Shown here piece by piece: positions 22,465 to 40,348 of a stretch of DNA of 64,000 nucleotides; the stretch's first letter is position 1; every line of letters starts with the position of its first letter. Under the pieces are notes generated by a model. It saw nothing but the letters and a program-made list of their open reading frames with translations. It searched no databases and was not told where the DNA came from. Made by a program: the position numbers and the translations under genes. The DNA lies in IMG/VR virus record IMGVR_UViG_2654588144_000016, positions 13,667 through 77,666 of that record. One strand, given 5' to 3'. The stretch comes from a virus. Its lineage: Duplodnaviria; Caudoviricetes.

Positions 22465-22565
22465 TTTAATTACCTACCTTTCAAGTAATTGCCTCAATTT
22501 GGATTTAGGCAAGGAAACGGTTAAGGCTTACCGCTTTCGTGTTGCAATCACTATCCTTGCCTAAG

Positions 22566-22637
22566 TTGGGCTAGTTGGATTCGAACCAACGAATACAGGA
22601 GTCAAAGTCCTGTGCCTTACCGCTTGGCGATAGCCCA
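22566..22637 (-). tRNA. tRNA-Gln (TTG)
   Basis: Cloverleaf TGGGCTA..., anticodon loop CTTTGAC, T-loop TTCGAAT. Confidence 0.93.
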
Positions 22638-22642
22638 TAAAT

Positions 22643-22951
22643 CTATGCTTCTTCTACTTGTCCAAAAACTTCACAATATCGCTTAACATCAGTAAATCCA
22701 AGAATCTCTTTTGCTTTTTCTACTGATTCCGTTCTAATATCAGAGTAAGTAGTAATTATATGACCATCTCCAAATCCATCTTGATAATTTTCAAATTCAC
22801 ATTTTGCCGAAAAGAAGTTCTGTCTAAAAGTCATAAAATATTTTCTACCATTTTGTTCACCAATTACTTCCGCATTATTTGTTCTATAAAGTTTTCCACA
22901 AATAATTGCAGAAGAATGATTGGTTTCTCTAATAAATCTCATATTACACAC
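22643..22951 (-). CDS. Hypothetical protein between tRNAs
   Basis: ORF with RBS. Confidence 0.6.
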
Positions 22952-22981
22952 ACCTTTACGATTAATAAACTTTTACTACAA

Positions 22982-23055
22982 TGGACGCTCTGGGCATCGA
23001 ACCCAGGAATCTTCCGGTTATGAGCCGGATGCATTAACCACTTTGCTAAGCGTCC
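22982..23055 (-). tRNA. tRNA with CAT anticodon (Ile2-like, or Met)
   Basis: GGACGCT acceptor, CCGG-CTCATAA-CCGG arm resembles Firmicute tRNA-Ile2. Confidence 0.85.
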
Positions 23056-23218
23056 TAAGCACGACCCGCTTAGATTATCACACCGTCTACTATCCAGTTC
23101 CTCTGGTTTCGCAAGCATACTCGTGCACTAATATGCTCCGGTAGTTTTCAGCGGGCATTATCATTCTTTGTGAGGCGTTGTGCGTACTCTCACATCAGCC
23201 GGGAGCGACCCGGCAACA

Positions 23219-23318
23219 TGGGGAGTATAAGAATCGAACCTATGTCTCTGGTGGTATCGATTTTTATGTTTACGATTATTCTGCTTTCCCCAGTGTCTTA
23301 CCACTTGACTAACTTCCC
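23219..23318 (-). ncRNA. tRNA-like RNA with a ~35-nt insert in place of the anticodon loop
   Basis: Acceptor GGGAAGT/ACTCCCC, D arm GTC-AAGTGGTAA-GAC, T arm ATAGG-TTCGATT-CTTAT. Confidence 0.65.
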
Positions 23319-23433
23319 AGGCTCATCCGTCCCCTGTATAGCCCCAAAGAACGGACAATGTTTATCAGACATTCGCTCTTTCCCCTATTGGGCGGGCATG
23401 TGAACCTTCGCTACTCGGCTATGAAGAGCAAAA

Positions 23434-23551
23434 TTCTGCATAACAGAATCGAACTGTGCTTACCCCAACGCCTGACTTTTGAAATGTACTCTGGTTGCGC
23501 TCACGCCATTTCCATTACAAAAGCGAGTGGATTTGAACCACATATGCAGAA
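23434..23551 (-). ncRNA. Structured RNA with two T-arm motifs
   Basis: Closing stem TTCTGCATA/TATGCAGAA enclosing GTGG-TTCAAAT-CCAC and ACAG-TTCGATT-CTGT. Confidence 0.55.
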
Positions 23552-23569
23552 CTCGTATCGTCATACGAA

Positions 23570-23642
23570 TGGGAAGTATAGGTTCCGACCCTATCTCTCC
23601 TGCTCTTCAGGCAGGCGCTTTCACCAGATTAGCTTACTTCCC
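23570..23642 (-). tRNA. tRNA-Phe (GAA), atypical T-loop
   Basis: CCTGC-CTGAAGA-GCAGG arm; T-loop GTCGGAA. Confidence 0.75.
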
Positions 23643-23789
23643 AGTATAAATCCCCCTTGTTCCGTACAAGGACGAAATTTTATTAACTTCCGTTGTAAAC
23701 TCCATTTTCTGGAATCAATGGGAAACCTTGTTTCGCTACCGTTTATCGCAGAGTCGTTTGCAAACAAGAAAAGGTCAACACATCTCTCA

Positions 23790-23873
23790 TGGGAAGAACT
23801 GGATTTGAACCAGCAGAACCCGAAGGTACCAGATTTACAGTCTGGCCCGCTACCAATTACGGTATATCTTCCC
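23790..23873 (-). tRNA. tRNA-Tyr (GTA)
   Basis: CCAGA-CTGTAAA-TCTGG arm, long variable arm, T-loop TTCAAAT. Confidence 0.9.
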
Positions 23874-23874
23874 T

Positions 23875-24493
23875 CAACGGGCATGCGCCCGTTAGCAACA
23901 TCTTTATCGTGCATATGCTTTACACTATCCGGTTTGCAGCCTTTCACCGGCAACTCTTTTATCCAGCTACCTCGCAAAACTGGACGGACAATTTCTTCTC
24001 ACCCGCAGGCTTTTCCCCTTGCCTTATCGGTTCACATGCAAAATTGCCACTGGTGTTTTAGGGAAAATCTTAGCAAGGTTTTTACTAGAACCGCTCTCAC
24101 GGTTCCGCTACTTTTTCTCCATCATGGTAGATGGGAAAACACATTCCTTGAAACTCCCCAGACACGCTTTGGCGCCGATTATGTACTCCAGAATGTTATC
24201 AGCAACTCAAATCCGTCCGCATCGGCGTTCCCGTACACTAGCCAAATTTGGTGACTGAGTAAATGCTGATAAGTTTTTCTACGGCTTATACGGGGGCCGT
24301 AGCATTTGGAAGATTGGAAAGCCTACCTATCTCTCCTGCAGCAGTTAGCTCATGCTTGCCAAGGCCGGTTTATATGGCTTAACCTGCTGCCATGTCTTGG
24401 AACTCCCATACAGGTGACACGTCTGCCAACTATTATCCGACTGCCTCAAACAGGAAGCAGCCTGACCATATACTGCATGGTAAAAACGTTCCA
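23875..24493 (-). ncRNA. Candidate large structured ncRNA between tRNA-Thr and tRNA-Tyr
   Basis: No credible ORF; at least ten hairpins and a pseudoknot-type pairing. Confidence 0.45.
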
Positions 24494-24566
24494 AGCTATC
24501 AACCGGATTCGAACCGACAACCTATCGCTTACAGGGCGATTGCTCTACCATTTGAGCTATGACAGC
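24494..24566 (-). tRNA. tRNA-Thr (TGT), C at position 33
   Basis: GCTGTCA acceptor, ATCGC-CCTGTAA-GCGAT arm, TTCGAAT. Confidence 0.82.
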
Positions 24567-24779
24567 TACTACAAATACCAATGATAACCACTCATTGGCA
24601 TGGATACTCCCCTGCGTTTACCGTTCCAGACGGATTGCAACGCCCAGTTCTCTTGTGTATCCTTCCCAGGCTGTAAAACCTCACGGCGGTCGTAAGCCGC
24701 CTTAACAGCCTATTGGCTATGAGGTAGAGGTCAAGTATGAAAAAAATCAAATCCGCATATTCAGCACAAGTATGCGGAA

Positions 24780-24858
24780 TAGGGAGAACAGGAATCGAAC
24801 CTGTGACTTCGGAGTGTTTCGTCGGCTTCTCCGCACTCTACCACTGAGCCATCTCCCT
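24780..24858 (-). ncRNA. tRNA-like RNA with a 14-nt anticodon loop
   Basis: Perfect acceptor AGGGAGA/TCTCCCT, D and T arms; CGGAG-AAGCCGACGAAACA-CTCCG. Confidence 0.7.
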
Positions 24859-31336: not shown

Positions 31337-32362
31337 ATGACAAAATATTTTAAAAATGTGAAATCCCTAGAGGATTTGAAAAACCAGTTTAAGGCCCTGG
31401 CCCGGAAGAATCACCCGGATGCTGGAGGAAACGCCGAAACCATGAAGGAAATCAACTGCGAATATGACGCGCTTTTCCCTATTTGGAAGGATCGTCACAA
31501 CACCGCAGAGCCGCAGAACCAGACCACCGAAACCGCGGACAGCACCCGCCGCCGGTTCTACACTGACTGGGGATGGGAAGGAAGCCGCTACAATTCCAGC
31601 ATGAGCACTACCGAAATTTCCAAAGCAATCAAAATCTATTGCAAAGAGAAATATCCAACATGGAAATTTTCAGTTACATCAAAATATTTTTCCGGCGGTT
31701 CCTCTATTGATATTTCCGTCATGGAAGCACCTGAACAGATTTTCGACCTTGCAGCCTGTCGCAAAGCATACGCTGAGCATCTGGAGAACGAAAAAATGGG
31801 CTACTATGGCGGCCGCGGTCTGGGAATGGACATAGAAAAGATGTTGACGGATGACAAAATGCACTGGCAGCTACACAGAATTAGTGACCATTACAAGGAA
31901 TATTTCACCGAATACGGTTTTTCGGTTCTGGAAGATGTTTATAAATTTATGCAGTCCTACAATTATGACGACAGCGACAGCATGACCGATTATTTCGCCT
32001 GCAATTTTTACAGCTCTTTTAACATCGGAAAATGGGACAAGGGTTTTAAAATCGTTCCCAAAACCGCCAGAATAAAGAATCAGGACAGTGCCCCAGCGAA
32101 AAAAGCGCCGAAGAAAAAACCAGCGGAGCCGGAAGCAATCGAACAGAAAACCGGCTACACCTACAAAATCACAAAAGGCGAGGACACACGGGACGGCTCC
32201 GAACTGTGGCTTGTACGAATTGAAGAAACGCTTGACCGTGAAGCATATAAGGCCGAAGCCGCCGCCATGAAAGAGCGTGGTGGATATTACAGCAAATTTC
32301 GCAAGGCATTTATTTTTCGATTTGACCCCACCGAAATTTTGTCCGGTGGAAAGGCGGCATAA
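31337..32362 (+). CDS. J-domain plus LPD29-like domain protein
   Basis: HPD motif (KNHPDAGG); KFSV...GGSSIDI and SYNYDDSDSMTDYF motifs. Confidence 0.75.
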   Translation: MTKYFKNVKSLEDLKNQFKALARKNHPDAGGNAETMKEINCEYDALFPIWKDRHNTAEPQNQTTETADSTRRRFYTDWGWEGSRYNSSMSTTEISKAIKIYCKEKYPTWKFSVTSKYFSGGSSIDISVMEAPEQIFDLAACRKAYAEHLENEKMGYYGGRGLGMDIEKMLTDDKMHWQLHRISDHYKEYFTEYGFSVLEDVYKFMQSYNYDDSDSMTDYFACNFYSSFNIGKWDKGFKIVPKTARIKNQDSAPAKKAPKKKPAEPEAIEQKTGYTYKITKGEDTRDGSELWLVRIEETLDREAYKAEAAAMKERGGYYSKFRKAFIFRFDPTEILSGGKAA

Positions 32363-32554
32363 TAGGCTGCCTGGCGGCATTTGGGCTGGTTCGACTCCCG
32401 CCGCTGCTTTTTCATTTCGCGGTCCCCAGGGACAAGGGGAGAAAGAAAACCTTGAAAACAATGTTAGATAAAGCAATTATCGCTATTGCCATCGGAGCAC
32501 ACCGTCGACACGGGCCAGACGGTTGGAAAATGGCAATTGTGAAATTGCCGCAAG

Positions 32555-32583
32555 AAAAAGAGCCTACAGGATAGGCCCTTTTT
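32555..32583. terminator. Bidirectional intrinsic terminator
   Basis: AAAAAGAGCCTA-CAGGA-TAGGCCCTTTTT. Confidence 0.75.
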
Positions 32584-32620
32584 CCATCACTTAAACATAA
32601 TGTTTTGTAATAATAATGTT

Positions 32621-32659
32621 ATTTCAATCCACGTGCGGGAAATCGGTTTCCCGGCTGAC
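32621..32659 (-). CRISPR. Solitary type I-C CRISPR-repeat-like unit (not an array)
   Basis: GTCAGCCGGGAAACCGATTTCCCGCACGTGGATTGAAAT: GTC start, hairpin, GTGGATTGAAAT end. Confidence 0.65.
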
Positions 32660-32821
32660 AAGCAACCCATTATGTTGCCAACGACAATTACATTATTATA
32701 TTACACCAAAAAGCATAAATAATCAAGAGTTAAATAATCGCATAATCGCAGTCCCCAAAAAAAGGAAAGAAAGGAACGACATGAAACAGATTGAAAAATG
32801 GCTACAGGATAATGGCATTAC

Positions 32822-33085
32822 ATGATGTCCGACAGCGAAAACAAATATAAGGTCGGGGAAACAGGATTGACAATGTATTCTTCGATTTGCAGATGCGATT
32901 CCTGCAAAGAGGAATTCTTTGCAGATTTTTTTTTAAAAATCCTAGATACCAGTATTGCCCTCATTGTGGGCGTATGTTTGTCAGTTGGAATCATGCTGAC
33001 ACAGAAAATCAACACTAACGCAACTGACACTCCCGCTCCATGGCTTCGACCAGCAGCAGGTTTACGACCTGCAGGCGGGATTTAA
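32822..33085 (+). CDS. Small protein; zinc ribbon split by a T9 tract
   Basis: CDSC in frame 0, CPHC in the -1 frame after T9 at 32926-32934. Confidence 0.5.
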   Translation: MMSDSENKYKVGETGLTMYSSICRCDSCKEEFFADFFLKILDTSIALIVGVCLSVGIMLTQKINTNATDTPAPWLRPAAGLRPAGGI

Positions 33086-33881
33086 GCACTTGCGGCGGCC
33101 CCGTACCCGTCTACAAGCCAACGCAAGCCGGTAACCCAAAGACACCAACCACGCCCCGGTGATGTAATCCGGCGCTTAACGGTTGCGCGATAGCATCCAG
33201 CACACAGGCAATACACCACCCTACAAGCTACGGGACGGGACGCAGACGGGAGGCGTATTCCCTGAGGGCAAAAATCAAAAATGAGAGGAGGAGCCGACCA
33301 TGAGTAACCGCTCACGTAGTCCGCCGACACATCAAAACAGTCCTCCCACGGTATTCAGTCCGTCAGCCGTCAGCCGGTACGGGGACTTTTGCACGTTTGC
33401 AACCGCATATTTAGCCGCGTAGCCATTTTATGCATTTGTGGCATATTGCAAAGGTAGCGCCTATAAAGTCCCATAGCGGGGCTTGTGGTGCGTGAAACCG
33501 ATATTTTAGGATTGTATGTTATCGCCGATTGTGGTATTATACGCTTATAGTAGATATTGTGTGCGCCGGTATGATAAACTACGCCAGTTTGGACAATCTT
33601 CTTTCAAACTGACATAATGCCGCCTGGAAGGCAAGGTATGTTCCTAAACAGTTTTATCAAAATCCAAAGCAAATCCGATGCAAATTCAAAATCAACTTTT
33701 CGTGATTTCACCAATCACCAAAATTTAAAAATTCTCCGAAAAATATTTTTGACATTCTTCTATCAGATCTCCTGCTCCCGGGGGGTATCAAAAAACGTTA
33801 CCTTGTTTGCATATTTTCAATTTTCCATTGTATCAACTCAATCTGTTCCAGATATTTTTTTGCTGTCAAACCAAAGCCCCC

Positions 33882-34916
33882 CTATCCAACATAACGGGCA
33901 TGAGCTTGTCGTACCGTTTCTTTGCTTATTTTTGCATAGCACTTAAGTGTTGTATCAACTTTTTCATGACCAAGCACTTCCTTTACCATCTCAATTGGTG
34001 CGCCCTTATTAATCATATCTGTTCCTACTGTACGCCTAAAAACATGAGGTGTAATTCTAACACCATCTAAGTCCGCATCACGTTCTTTTATTTGATTAAG
34101 AATATTTCGTACTGTCTTGTCCCCTATGCGGCTTTGAGGCCTATGTGGTGATACAAACAACGCTGGGTTATCATCATTACGGCTGTCGATATATCTCCAA
34201 AGATGCAATGCCACTTGTCCATTTAAACATACTTGCCGTTCTTTTCTTCCCTTTCCATAAACAACAGCAGTTTTACGATGAAAGTCCACATCTGCAATAT
34301 CCATTCCGCATAGCTCAGATACCCTTATGCCTGTTACATATAACATATCACATAATGCCAACTCAAATTCATTTTCACAAGCGCATCTTACCATTTCGCG
34401 TTGTTCTGGCTGCAATGTCGAGCCTATTCTATATTCCACCCGCGTTTCTTTTAATTTCTTAGCTGGATTATTTGGCAACAGGCCCTCTGTATACAGAAAA
34501 GAGAAGAAACTACGTATTGATATAAGTTTACTATTATAGGTCCTATCCTTCCATTTCCGCACTACTTTCCCATATCCAAGATATCCTTTTAAATCCTGGT
34601 ATGTAATCTCTGTAACATTTTTATTTATATGTGCCAACATATTTTTTAAATTGTATTTATAATTATTTATACTACCATCAGTGCACCCATCTAATTTCAT
34701 CTGAAACAAATAAGCGTTAAGGTATTCCACTGACCTATATATCTCATTGGAAAGAGCCGTTTCTTCTGTGAAAAACTGAAAACCAGATAGGCACATATTA
34801 AGTATCTGTTTTACTTCATTGAGTCGTTCCTGTTCTTCGATGACATCTACAATATTATCCATCACACGCCTGACAACATCATCCATACTTACCTGTTCTG
34901 CCATATATTTCCACAC
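33882..34916 (-). CDS. Tyrosine recombinase (XerC/D-like)
   Basis: Intact R (TGIRVSE), K (GKGRKER), HxxR (HVFRR), H (LGHE), Y (CYAK). Confidence 0.93.
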   Translation of the reverse strand: MWKYMAEQVSMDDVVRRVMDNIVDVIEEQERLNEVKQILNMCLSGFQFFTEETALSNEIYRSVEYLNAYLFQMKLDGCTDGSINNYKYNLKNMLAHINKNVTEITYQDLKGYLGYGKVVRKWKDRTYNSKLISIRSFFSFLYTEGLLPNNPAKKLKETRVEYRIGSTLQPEQREMVRCACENEFELALCDMLYVTGIRVSELCGMDIADVDFHRKTAVVYGKGRKERQVCLNGQVALHLWRYIDSRNDDNPALFVSPHRPQSRIGDKTVRNILNQIKERDADLDGVRITPHVFRRTVGTDMINKGAPIEMVKEVLGHEKVDTTLKCYAKISKETVRQAHARYVG

Positions 34917-39946: not shown

Positions 39947-40348
39947 TCAGTTTTGCGGATAAAGCAAATCCGGATTGTCAAAAATGTTGCCAACAACATC
40001 AGCATTTGCAAACATTTCAAGCGTATACTGTTGATAGCTATCGTCTATATCATCCACAGCAAATCCTATATAATCTTCCGTATACCACATTACTTTTCCG
40101 ACTGCCTTAATTGCATCATGGTAGATAATATCATTCTCCCAAATTTCTCTACCGTTCTTATCGGTTATTCCGGCATACTGACAGACGGTTTTAGGGTCTA
40201 TTTCAATCCATTCCGCATAACGTTCGTCATATCCATGGTCATCATCATATACCGGCAAGATATAGTGATGTCCTCTGCATTTTACATAATAGCCTTTCTC
40301 CCACTCGGCATTGTCCAATCTCTTTGCCTTACATAAATATCTGTCCAT
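39947..40348 (-). CDS. YopX family protein
   Basis: CQYAGITDKNGREIWENDI and VVGNIFDNPDLL motifs. Confidence 0.9.
   Translation of the reverse strand: MDRYLCKAKRLDNAEWEKGYYVKCRGHHYILPVYDDDHGYDERYAEWIEIDPKTVCQYAGITDKNGREIWENDIIYHDAIKAVGKVMWYTEDYIGFAVDDIDDSYQQYTLEMFANADVVGNIFDNPDLLYPQN

Follow-up and report, generated by a model that had tools for sequence, protein, structure and literature searches.

A forked mimic of a type I-C CRISPR repeat in a phage accessory cassette: a candidate RNA anti-CRISPR

What is a single CRISPR-like repeat doing in the genome of a gut phage, between two plus-strand genes and within what looks like a transcription unit of its own? The window analysed here (the whole stretch of DNA, 64,000 nucleotides) carries such a unit on its minus strand, where positions 32726 to 32555 can be read directly as a promoter-like site, a repeat mimic, an AT-rich stretch and a terminator. 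With a probability of roughly 0.65, the predicted product, a non-coding RNA some 135-140 nt in length, would mimic a type I-C crRNA and serve as an RNA anti-CRISPR of the Racr/Cracr class, distracting or reprogramming the CRISPR defence of the host. Most likely, we see here a new form of a trick that phages are already known to use.

The promoter-like site consists of a -35-like hexamer TTGATT (32721-32726), which is invariant in all eight copies of the element, and, 17 nt further on, a -10-like hexamer TAATAT (32698-32703), which is overlapped by a perfect TATAAT at 32700-32695. These promoter letters, like the 37-nt AT-rich stretch (32620-32584) and the hairpin with its T-run (about 32581-32555), were found just as the initial annotation had described them. 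The hexamer pair agrees with the consensus at 8 of 12 positions and is thus absent from the list of our promoter scan, which used a threshold of 9 of 12; the scan did list a plus-strand site within the element (32675-32702, 10 of 12). Judged from the spacing, transcription would start near 32691, and GUCGU, with which the repeat mimic opens, begins 12 nt past the -10-like hexamer. The outer helix UAAUAAUGU/ACAUUAUUA of a first fold was dropped, because with a start at this position it would probably not be transcribed.

At the other end of the unit lies an intrinsic terminator (32555-32581), a hairpin with a predicted 13-bp stem and a U-run that can serve both strands. The terminator scan listed the hairpin for the plus strand only; on the minus strand it is followed by TTTTTCTT. 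One stem position is G-U in three and A-U in three of the six distinct rows of the alignment. The terminator is shared with a converging small gene remnant of 38 aa on the plus strand (32461-32574), which belongs to the context and not to the RNA. An 87-aa form of this gene is present in another contig (L043), from which the window version differs by an in-frame loss of 117 nt; behind a 68%-identical homologue of the small gene, no element was found. Read coverage comes from four runs, in which contigs from three libraries labelled "RNA?" (X15-X17) span 32384-32693, libraries that may contain DNA. A short contig from the same read mapping (X20) spans 32300-32383. The right ends of the contigs at 32663 and 32693 were considered as RNA ends and rejected: positions 32661 and 32695, both polymorphic, are no more than 2 nt away from them, and we read them as assembly breaks.

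The repeat itself had initially been delimited as a 39-mer starting at GTCAGCC. This 39-mer, GTCAGCCGGGAAACCGATTTCCCGCACGTGGATTGAAAT, is present (32659-32621) and contains the annotated hairpin CGGGAAA/TTTCCCG, but its 5' end was misplaced. Parsed in this way, 4 nt separate the hairpin from the UGG of the handle, and in 17 of 17 distinct real type I-C repeats (31-33 nt long) the stem abuts the handle. A better 5' end is the GUCGU at 32685-32681, which would make the annotated hairpin the second arm of a forked stem. The mimic (psi-repeat) then comprises 65 nt (32621-32685, minus strand): GUCGU, a fork of two hairpins, ACG and an 11-nt handle. Its base helix would have 3 bp, formed by CGU (32681-32683) and ACG (32634-32632); the counterpart in canonical repeats is CGC/GCG, from which the third pair differs on both sides. 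Hairpin 1 (GGCAAC AUAAUGG GUUGCU, 32661-32679) is inserted into the 5' strand of the repeat stem, and its closing pair is G-U in three copies and G-C in five. Hairpin 2 (CGGGAAA CCGA UUUCCCG, 32636-32653) is invariant in 8 of 8 copies. The handle UGGAUUGAAAU (32621-32631) is identical to the type I-C 5' handle, including that of published I-C repeats, and is directly preceded, as in type I-C repeats, by a G at the stem base; Cas5c is predicted to cut after G32632.

For the majority variant in a 106-nt context with the leader, the fork is the minimum free energy (MFE) structure, and the z-score of the element fold is -2.8. In the isolated unit, the fork lies above the MFE by 4.2 (window variant), 2.0 (L002) and 2.6 kcal/mol (L072), and the 3-bp base helix is absent from the predicted MFE structure. 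The pairing probabilities of the fork pairs in the window variant are 0.02-0.3.

How much of a real repeat is preserved? The unit agrees with a I-C repeat subfamily of the form GTCGT...ACGTGGATTGAAAT at 5 + 14 end positions. One member of it, GTCGTTCCCCACGAGGGAACGTGGATTGAAAT (locus L110), adjoins the genes cas5d-csd1-cas7-cas4-cas1-cas2, and its ends, 5' GUCGU and 3' ACGUGGAUUGAAAU, are those of our unit as well as those of two viral mini-arrays (L118 and L164); the viral family C (L122/L151/L167) carries these repeat ends as well. The L110 repeat and the unit thus have in common the 5' GUCGU, the CGU/ACG stem base, the G at the cut site and the 11-nt handle. In the L110 repeat, which is arrayed, 13 central nucleotides form the upper stem and pentaloop, whereas a two-hairpin module of 46 nt takes their place here. 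In length and shape, this solitary 65-nt fork differs from a canonical I-C repeat, which measures 31-33 nt, folds into one stem of about 7 bp with a pentaloop and belongs to an array. Likeness to real repeats is limited to the ends, and blastn-short comparisons with six I-C arrays gave 26.3-30.2 bits over 13-15 nt. We sampled 401 genomes of the phylum to which the nearest integrase relative belongs, and 35 of them contain type I-C arrays with exactly the handle UGGAUUGAAAU. According to PMC8524198, Cas5c recognises its substrate by the cut site and by the handle downstream of it, with loop and 5' overhang being uncritical.

The exact 12-mer of the element on its own is unremarkable across a large scan. 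GTCGT was not significantly enriched upstream of ACGTGGATTGAAAT in viral contexts (16 of 104 compared with 11 of 104 for a control word), in a test whose open-frame filter misclassified arrays. Real I-C arrays yielded 0 hits in an Rfam scan, so that a missing CRISPR family match at the element is uninformative. Still, a chance origin is unlikely, because the 14-nt repeat match comes together with a 5' GUCGU able to pair with ACG and with an architecture that is recurrent in other viral contigs.

This architecture (promoter-like site, forked repeat mimic, spacer-like stretch, terminator) was found in three viral families of unrelated sequence, namely A/A' (L072 and eight distinct units in 10 loci), L198 and L216. 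In each, hairpin 2 stops 3-4 nt before the UGG and [G/A]CG faces a 5' CG[C/U], although it should be considered that the search patterns themselves demanded the letters GTCGT, GTCGC, ACG and GCG in these units. Family A/A' shows covariation: 16 pairs with 97.9% of the cells paired and five pairs changed on both sides, which none of 500 shuffles equalled, most of the double changes being supplied by L072 alone. Compensatory changes are present in the third pair of the base helix, which in the sister family A is C-G in eight cases and U-A in one, and in the second hairpin. Units of family A' precede a module of psi-spacer, psi-repeat, psi-spacer and terminator that is common to the single-hairpin family C. 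Since forked units front the same module, forked and plain psi-repeats are, by this arrangement, interchangeable.

Within the 77,666-base record from which the window was taken, a search for the 39-mer with up to three mismatches found a single copy, and the Cas5d and Cas7 families had no match in this provirus record. The view of the initial annotation, that the phage carries a lone mimic of a I-C repeat within a promoter-to-terminator unit of its own, is supported. A search of the record for Csd1 was also without a match, but is void, as the control was silent in every control genome. The 12-mer has one exact occurrence in the window and one 11-of-12 match at 40200-40211, inside long ORFs on both strands. 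Almost unchanged, the element recurs in seven other contigs (L002 and six metagenome contigs). Together with the window, these eight copies are 98% identical, with nine variable columns in the alignment and zero pairs altered on both sides, so that the comparison is powerless for covariation in the element itself. Of four polymorphisms in predicted stems, three preserve the base pair if the minus strand is read, but not on the plus strand (99.6% vs 95.1% of the cells paired), one of these three (column 8) being upstream of the presumed start.

The cassette that houses the unit is accessory and variable. A gene for an LPD29 polyvalent-protein domain adjoins the unit, and the integrase gene is 1.2 kb away; the L072 unit likewise lies 1.2 kb from an integrase. 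Among the neighbouring proteins, no family match marks acr or aca genes or an anti-CRISPR locus. Related phages with a common integrase (92-96% identical in amino acids, about 92-94% in DNA) or LPD29 gene have other cassettes at this site and are without the element. No distant relatives of the element were found in the phage collection, and 185,579 species genomes gave 0 hits.

From these features and the published precedents, we propose the following mechanism. Transcription would begin a few bases upstream of GUCGU, and the first 65 nt would fold such that CGU (32683-32681) pairs with ACG (32634-32632), rebuilding the I-C stem base ahead of UGGAUUGAAAU with the tip of the stem swapped for two hairpins. 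[quoted passage not shown] The 3' product would then consist of the handle, the 37-nt stretch and the terminator hairpin, laid out like a mature I-C crRNA. By analogy with Racrs and Cracrs, it would occupy Cas5c, Cas7 and Cas8c instead of host crRNAs and weaken interference against the phage. Additionally, the 37-nt stretch might guide the complex to a site in the host with which it matches in part, as Cracrs do. Within the confidence stated for the RNA anti-CRISPR, the odds of a mere decoy and of a guide are roughly equal.

The guide mode, which claims a share of the same probability and is by itself a tentative reading, assumes that, once the RNA is loaded, about 9-12 PAM-proximal bases pair with a host site, for instance a cas promoter or cas gene, and that Cascade represses it without cutting. 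It gains from a layout of psi-repeat, psi-spacer and terminator that equals those of CracrVA1 and CreR, and from I-C Cracrs reported in Bacillota, both according to the Cracr preprint (10.1101/2024.10.29.618823). The spacer-like stretch (psi-spacer, 32584-32620, minus strand) starts with AACAUUAUUAUU, is AT-rich and contains a 5-bp hairpin at 32605-32593; handle and terminator hairpin are 37-41 nt apart, which is near the lengths of spacers in real arrays (32-36 nt), and in the kindred viral families C/A' and in L164, several units with short AT-rich psi-spacers form an array. On the other hand, four of the nine variable alignment columns (93, 94, 103 and 114) fall within the 37-nt stretch. 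The initial annotation had envisaged a target with a TTC PAM for this segment, and nothing convincing emerged: TTC plus a seed match was found neither in the phage record nor in 139,663 bases of I-C loci, and in 35 I-C genomes, among which the true host is not included, the pattern was about as frequent as a reversed control. One candidate was rejected. In one I-C locus (G221), the leading 12 nt of the stretch coincide with the codons of QHYY, which belong to the conserved motif near the N-terminus of cas4. The PAM of this site is TGC, the other four of five cas4 genes examined match just 1-6 leading bases, and we estimate that a match so near an array is expected by chance in about one search in three.

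Could the structure have another purpose altogether? The two hairpins could be P2 and P3, the "tuning fork", of a relative of the purine riboswitches, in which case the handle match would be a coincidence that stood out only because the initial annotation was looking for such motifs. The RNA might then bind a ligand and regulate whether transcription reads through into the antisense of the converging gene. We consider this unlikely. The Rfam model of the 2'-dG-I aptamer (2dG-I, RF01510) does match the element over model positions 11-54 of 63, with 32.1 bits and E = 1.1e-4 in 501 nt (E = 0.014 window-wide), the sole match other than tRNAs among 10 listed at E values up to 2. The consensus of the model is found letter for letter in loop 2 (AUAAUGG), and loop 3 conforms to ACCnAU; the adjacent hairpins have loops and spacing like P2-L2 and P3-L3, a three-way junction is followed by a terminator as in transcriptional riboswitches, and the fold z-score given above points the same way. 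However, the family has a gathering cutoff of 51, which 32.1 bits do not reach, model positions 1-10 and 55-63, which comprise P1 and the conserved strands of the junction, are unaligned, and the CRISPR handle occupies the place of the 3' strand of P1. Nor is there a gene to be regulated: no gene follows on the same strand, and the only long minus-strand frame overlaps the family-matched LPD29 gene on the opposite strand. A scan for the loops and junction returned the same near-identical element only (in one viral contig and in six of 11 metagenome matches, the other five being unrelated). A riboswitch would also leave unexplained the 14-nt I-C identity, the 5' GUCGU and the recurrence of handle-bearing forks with other hairpin sequences, and the RNA anti-CRISPR explanation treats the resemblance to the aptamer as coincidence or convergence. 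If both ideas are combined, forked ("Y-shaped") I-C repeat mimics, which retain just the stem base and handle that Cas5c recognises and have two hairpins for a stem tip, would be a distinct, undescribed structural class of phage anti-CRISPR RNA. In the present member, with its purine-riboswitch-like fork, a small molecule or loop-loop docking could gate the formation of the stem base and hence capture of Cas5c. This seems to us very doubtful; if true, it would amount to a ligand-tuned or specially stabilised RNA anti-CRISPR.

It is rather improbable, too, that the locus makes no dedicated RNA and is an intergenic spacer with a two-way terminator, a plus-strand promoter and palindromes that arose by chance or serve as operators. 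Such a reading could point to the 10-of-12 plus-strand site, which faces a gene start at 32781, as compared with the 8 of 12 of the minus-strand promoter, and to the terminator, which closes the small plus-strand gene. CGGGAAA-N4-TTTCCCG is moreover a perfect 18-bp palindrome of the kind that we would expect dimeric regulators to bind, and the coverage comes just from contigs of uncertain RNA or DNA origin. Chance, though, fails to explain the I-C ends and an architecture common to other phages, three of the four stem polymorphisms are wobble-compatible on the minus strand alone, and the module moves as a unit among different neighbouring cassettes.

If the unit is indeed an RNA anti-CRISPR, its closest relatives are Racrs and Cracrs. 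As described by Camara-Wilpert et al. 2023 (PMC10651486), RacrIC1 and other Racrs are, as here, solitary repeat-like sequences in a phage, with no cas genes and with a promoter-like site just upstream; they mimic host-type repeats as small RNAs, as our unit is predicted to do, and I-C is among the types inhibited. Unlike in Racrs, only the repeat ends (5 + 14 nt) are kept here, two hairpins stand for the stem tip, and the length is 65 nt instead of 31-33 nt. RacrIC1, which was assayed in PAO1::IC, shares an operon with a homologue of AcrIC5 and follows it at a distance of 11 nt, whereas our unit has no recognised acr-like neighbour. The SRUFinder pipeline, as described there, compares candidates by blastn with a library of 17,823 CRISPR repeats and demands 41.1 bits or more. 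Against six I-C arrays the unit remains under this score, and the pipeline would thus probably not have listed it, a judgement that refers to these six arrays.

As to Cracrs and CreR/CreA, the bioRxiv preprint by Liu et al. (10.1101/2024.10.29.618823) describes CracrVA1 as a single psi-repeat with a psi-spacer and a rho-independent terminator, the arrangement that we see here, and our unit has a phage origin in common with Cracrs. I-C and Bacillota are named there among the targets, and our family C/A' and L164 resemble the "Cracr arrays" with several spacers. The defining feature of Cracrs, a match of at least nine PAM-proximal bases to a host CreR/CreA spacer or a cas promoter, was not found for our unit in the phage record, in the 139,663 bases of I-C loci or, above background, in the 35 I-C genomes. 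Forked psi-repeats are not mentioned in the parts of the preprint consulted, and its tables S1 and S2 may already include family C/A'.

RNA anti-CRISPRs and viral crRNA-like regulators have been found via near-full-length copies of repeats, and the present unit keeps only the stem base and the handle, which the I-C processing enzyme is reported to read, with a 46-nt fork between them. If such RNAs work, the census of RNA-based anti-CRISPRs is an undercount, nature itself has defined a minimal recognition element for Cas5c, and type I-C tools could be supplied with compact scaffolds or decoys in the form of forked repeats. With one RNA and one nuclease, the system offers a simple test bed.

The host side was approached from several directions. 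We aligned 508 spacers from 19 I-C array loci to the phage and its relatives and found no alignment of at least 24 nt, the best one being 17 nt. No link by blastn was seen between the phage and contigs with a I-C system or with other units, and tblastx gave one weak match, L164 to L030. Among species genomes, the nearest integrase (61% identity) is encoded by a Paenibacillaceae MAG that does not contain the 12-mer, while the closest phage match of a 680-aa protein is from a Bacteroides phage (43% identity). The runs that contain the stretch are mostly pig-gut metagenomes, plus one coded isolate.

On the minus strand, the unit at 32726-32555 was read from the sequence as a -35-like TTGATT (32726-32721), a -10-like TAATAT 17 nt after it (32703-32698), a 39-mer with the hairpin CGGGAAA/CCGA/UUUCCCG and the 3' end GTGGATTGAAAT (32659-32621), an AT-rich stretch of 37 nt (32620-32584) and a hairpin with a T-run (about 32581-32555). 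This confirms the layout described in the initial annotation, which had taken the unit for a solitary, separately transcribed type I-C CRISPR repeat. The minus-strand promoter scores 8/12 and is therefore absent from the promoter-scan listing, which gives a 10/12 site on the + strand at 32675-32702; the terminator hairpin, too, appears in the scan output for the + strand. An 8-nt sequence (TGCGATTA) is duplicated in tandem upstream of the -35-like hexamer (32735-32750, minus strand); the contigs L037, L039 and L043 share this duplication, and TGCGATTA is present as a single copy in L002, L041, L042 and L045. The IMG/VR provirus record of which the window is a part (77,666 bases, estimated completeness 47%) contains a single match to the 39-mer when up to 3 mismatches are allowed, and the exact 12-mer that forms the I-C repeat end occurs once in the window, in agreement with the annotated lack of a second repeat. 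The lack of nearby cas genes holds for Cas5d and Cas7, for which a family search of the record gave no match; in the Csd1 search of the record the control was silent as well.

The 12-mer occurs in 25 papers and is published as the terminal part of I-C repeats (PMC4521832, PMC8955288). In a sample of 401 genomes from the phylum to which the nearest integrase relative belongs, 35 have arrays with the exact 11-nt handle (32631-32621). While the I-C ending thus stands, the 39-nt repeat was rejected. The 17 distinct repeats from 19 array loci are all 31-33 nt long, and each has its stem directly against the handle (...GCG followed by TGGATTGAAAT and variants), whereas the hairpin of the 39-mer ends 4 nt ahead of the UGG handle. 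Compared with 6 I-C arrays, the element matches over only 13-15 nt (26.3-30.2 bits, versus the published SRUFinder cut of 41.1 bits; PMC10651486), and real I-C repeats share 23-31 of 33 positions among themselves.

A different parse of the unit suggests a forked structure. GUCGU lies at 32685-32681, upstream of hairpin 1 (32679-32661), and ACG lies at 32634-32632, directly ahead of the handle; CGU and ACG are complementary and would form a 3-bp base helix carrying hairpin 1 and hairpin 2 (32653-32636). Like canonical I-C repeats (GUCGC...GCG followed by UGGAUUGAAAU), the unit retains the 5' overhang, the cut-site G, the entire handle and the 3-bp stem base, whose third pair is changed from C-G to U-A on both sides; unlike them, it has hairpin 1, a linker and hairpin 2 in place of the upper stem and pentaloop. 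According to PMC8524198, recognition by Cas5c depends on the handle (U22-G23-G24) and on the cut site upstream of it, at the 3' stem base, and neither the loop nor the 5' overhang is critical. For the 106-nt RNA of the majority variant (C at 32661, 5 of 8 copies) the fork is the minimum free energy (MFE) structure, in which hairpin 2 gains two pairs and stacks onto the base helix, whereas the window variant (U at 32661) prefers an alternative long hairpin. When the 65-nt unit (32685-32621) is folded in isolation, the fork is less stable than the MFE by 4.2 (window) or 2.0 (L002) kcal/mol, and the base helix is thus marginal on its own.

Repeats of the GUCGU...ACG type are real. A contig flagged as viral, L110, carries cas5d (truncated), csd1, cas7, cas4, cas1 and cas2, followed by an array of GTCGTTCCCCACGAGGGAACGTGGATTGAAAT, and L107 holds a sister repeat. 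Among the 35 handle-bearing genomes ACG precedes the handle at only one place, so this subfamily is rare in that sample. Plain single-hairpin units with the same ends stand behind promoter-like sites in the viral mini-arrays L118 and L164 and in three further contigs (family C; L122, L151, L167). In L110 (958-2881) the cas5d gene matches only model positions 92-217, the remaining type I-C operon and the array lying downstream; directly upstream is a phage-type endolysin gene (glucosaminidase, CHAP, CW_7 repeats). A prophage or contig boundary may cut into the cas operon here.

Two scans of the viral collection required only that GTCGT or GTCGC be followed, after 36-64 nt, by the 14-nt repeat end. 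Among the 11 stretches of the first scan, family A (L072, L075, L078) has two hairpins filling the gap, TTGACA-17-TATGCT just upstream and a terminator downstream; L076 holds an additional unit that runs from promoter to terminator. The 27 stretches of the second scan contain 24 distinct units, among them 8 distinct homologues of family A at 10 loci (family A') and two more forked units that are unrelated and solitary (L198, L216), each between promoter-like and terminator-like sequences. The remaining matches were arrays, hairpin-plus-repeat mini-arrays or apparent chance hits. In every forked unit hairpin 2 stops 3-4 nt ahead of UGG, a feature outside the search patterns. Across the 9 sequences of families A and A', 97.9% of the cells of 16 pairs are paired and 5 pairs are changed on both sides, which was reached in 0 of 500 shuffles, and slid controls gave no more than 2 such pairs. 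For the third pair of the base helix, 8 sequences have C-G and 1 has U-A. Covariation in this sister family supports the predicted fork, with few events behind the double changes, as four of the five come from L072 alone and one from L210. Family A' units precede the same module of psi-spacer, degenerate repeat, psi-spacer and GTCGCG-terminator as family C, so one kind of locus can take either a forked or a plain psi-repeat. As with the window unit, there is an integrase 1.2 kb from the L072 unit. RNA anti-CRISPRs (Racrs; PMC10651486, 2023) and viral crRNA-like regulators (Cracrs; 10.1101/2024.10.29.618823, preprint first posted 2024) are already known, type I-C included. We found no mention of a forked psi-repeat in the accessible parts of this literature, whose supplementary tables may list some of the loci, and literature searches pairing Racr with three-way junction or RNA anti-CRISPR with riboswitch returned nothing.

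Several further features of these viral units were noted. The terminator of the family C and A' modules starts with GTCGCG, resembling the 5' part of an I-C repeat, and may double as a 3' hairpin of the RNA. The gene downstream of these modules encodes, by sequence reading, a product starting MTLRAMRERAGLSQQDL, for which a family search at 240 aa gave no match. At about 5040-5300 of L164, one transcription unit contains four repeat-like units that differ from one another (three are of I-C types, the fourth of a ...GGATCGAAAC type). Short AT-rich stretches (19-31 nt) separate them and a terminator comes last, an arrangement that resembles a multiplexed crRNA-like array. In unrelated forked units ATTTATGTGTG (L198, L216) or ATTTATGTTG (L076) follows 7-9 nt past the handle, and in the window unit CATTATGTTTAAG begins 20 nt past it; a shared target or a shared signal might explain these motifs. 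Short I-C-like repeat units in the viral contigs L195 (about 150-290) and L192 directly adjoin tRNA 3' ends (GGTTCGATTCCCGCC..., GGTTCGAGTCC...), which are likely attachment sites.

Taken together, we consider the unit a probable type I-C CRISPR RNA mimic (probability about 0.65). This reading accounts for the 14-nt identity, the 5' GUCGU with its compensated pair, the stand-alone transcription unit in an accessory cassette and the finding of this design in other units whose hairpins are unrelated. A structured, riboswitch-like RNA unrelated to CRISPR, which we regard as unlikely, would account for the two hairpins only. A permissive Rfam scan (501 nt) matched the 2'-dG-I aptamer of the purine clan at 32636-32679 on the minus strand with 32.1 bits (E = 1.1e-4; gathering cutoff 51), covering model positions 11-54 of 63 (P2, L2, J2-3, P3, L3); loop 2 is identical to the consensus AUAAUGG, and the hairpin initially assigned to the repeat corresponds to P3. 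In the whole-window scan (E = 0.014) it is the sole match not related to tRNA among 10 listed at E up to 2. However, P1 and the ligand-pocket junction strands are unaligned, and no gene was found downstream of the element on the same strand. The I-C and riboswitch resemblances are each unlikely on their own; the latter may have arisen by chance (at the 1-in-70 level for a window) or by convergence on a docked-loop fork.

That the stretch has no RNA function at all likewise seems unlikely to us, and its copies bear on this point. Outside the window, one viral contig (L002) carries the element, and a loop-and-junction pattern matched 11 metagenome stretches, of which 6 carry it and 5 are unrelated sequence; searches of one genome each of 185,579 species and of a phage collection found none. 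The 8 copies are 98% identical (9 variable columns), and covariation is therefore absent. Four variable columns fall in predicted stems, and three of these stay paired on the minus strand only (A-U/G-U, G-C/G-U, A-U/G-U), with 99.6% of cells paired across the copies versus 95.1% on the + strand. This is a modest hint in favour of a minus-strand RNA, as one of the three pair-keeping columns lies upstream of the likely transcription start. Short contigs from three wastewater libraries labelled 'RNA?', which are possibly DNA, span 32384-32693, and two of the contigs end on the right, at 32663 and 32693, no more than 2 nt from a polymorphic site (32661 and 32695).

As a CRISPR RNA mimic, the unit would be transcribed from about 32691, bound by Cas5c and cut after G32632. 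The 3' product (handle, 37 nt and terminator hairpin with pentaloop) would load into Cascade and compete with host crRNAs, as a decoy or as a guide. The initial annotation had proposed to look for targets of the 37-nt stretch with a TTC PAM. This search did not yield a target: neither the phage nor 139,663 bases of I-C loci contained a seed match flanked by TTC, and the PAM-plus-seed pattern was at background in 35 I-C genomes. The sole match near an array was discarded; it corresponds to the QHYY codons of cas4 in one I-C locus (G221), has the PAM TGC and occurs in 1 of 5 cas4 genes. None of 508 I-C spacers matched the phage.

Most window genes are on the minus strand, and a + strand block surrounds the element. 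It comprises a 341-aa protein with an LPD29 polyvalent-protein domain (31337-32362, 59 bits), a tRNA 3'-end-like fragment (about 32385-32440, sequence reading), a small gene ending in the terminator (32461-32574) and the start of a further gene (32781); a tyrosine integrase follows on the minus strand (33882-34916). Phages sharing the integrase (92-96% amino-acid identity, DNA about 92-94%) and the LPD29 gene (80-85%) have different cassettes in place of 32376-33100, and the module 32441-32823 is found beside differing left-hand neighbours, which makes it a mobile accessory cassette close to the integrase. The small gene encodes 87 aa in L037, L039 and L043 (L043 8208-8471) and has an in-frame 117-nt deletion in the window, L002, L041, L042 and L045; family searches of it and of other neighbouring small proteins gave no match. 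The tRNA-like fragment resembles a T-arm and acceptor 3' strand (GGTTCGACTCCCGCCGCTGC) and is also present in L002, L005, L020, L023 and L024; ARAGORN and Rfam made no call for it. It is kept in relatives without the element and is possibly the phage attachment core. Elsewhere in the window, a minus-strand tRNA gene cluster lies at 22565-24858 (7 by Rfam, 5 by ARAGORN: Gln, Met, Phe, Tyr, Thr), in which two Rfam 'Plastid-ycf2' matches are merely the antisense of two tRNA genes.
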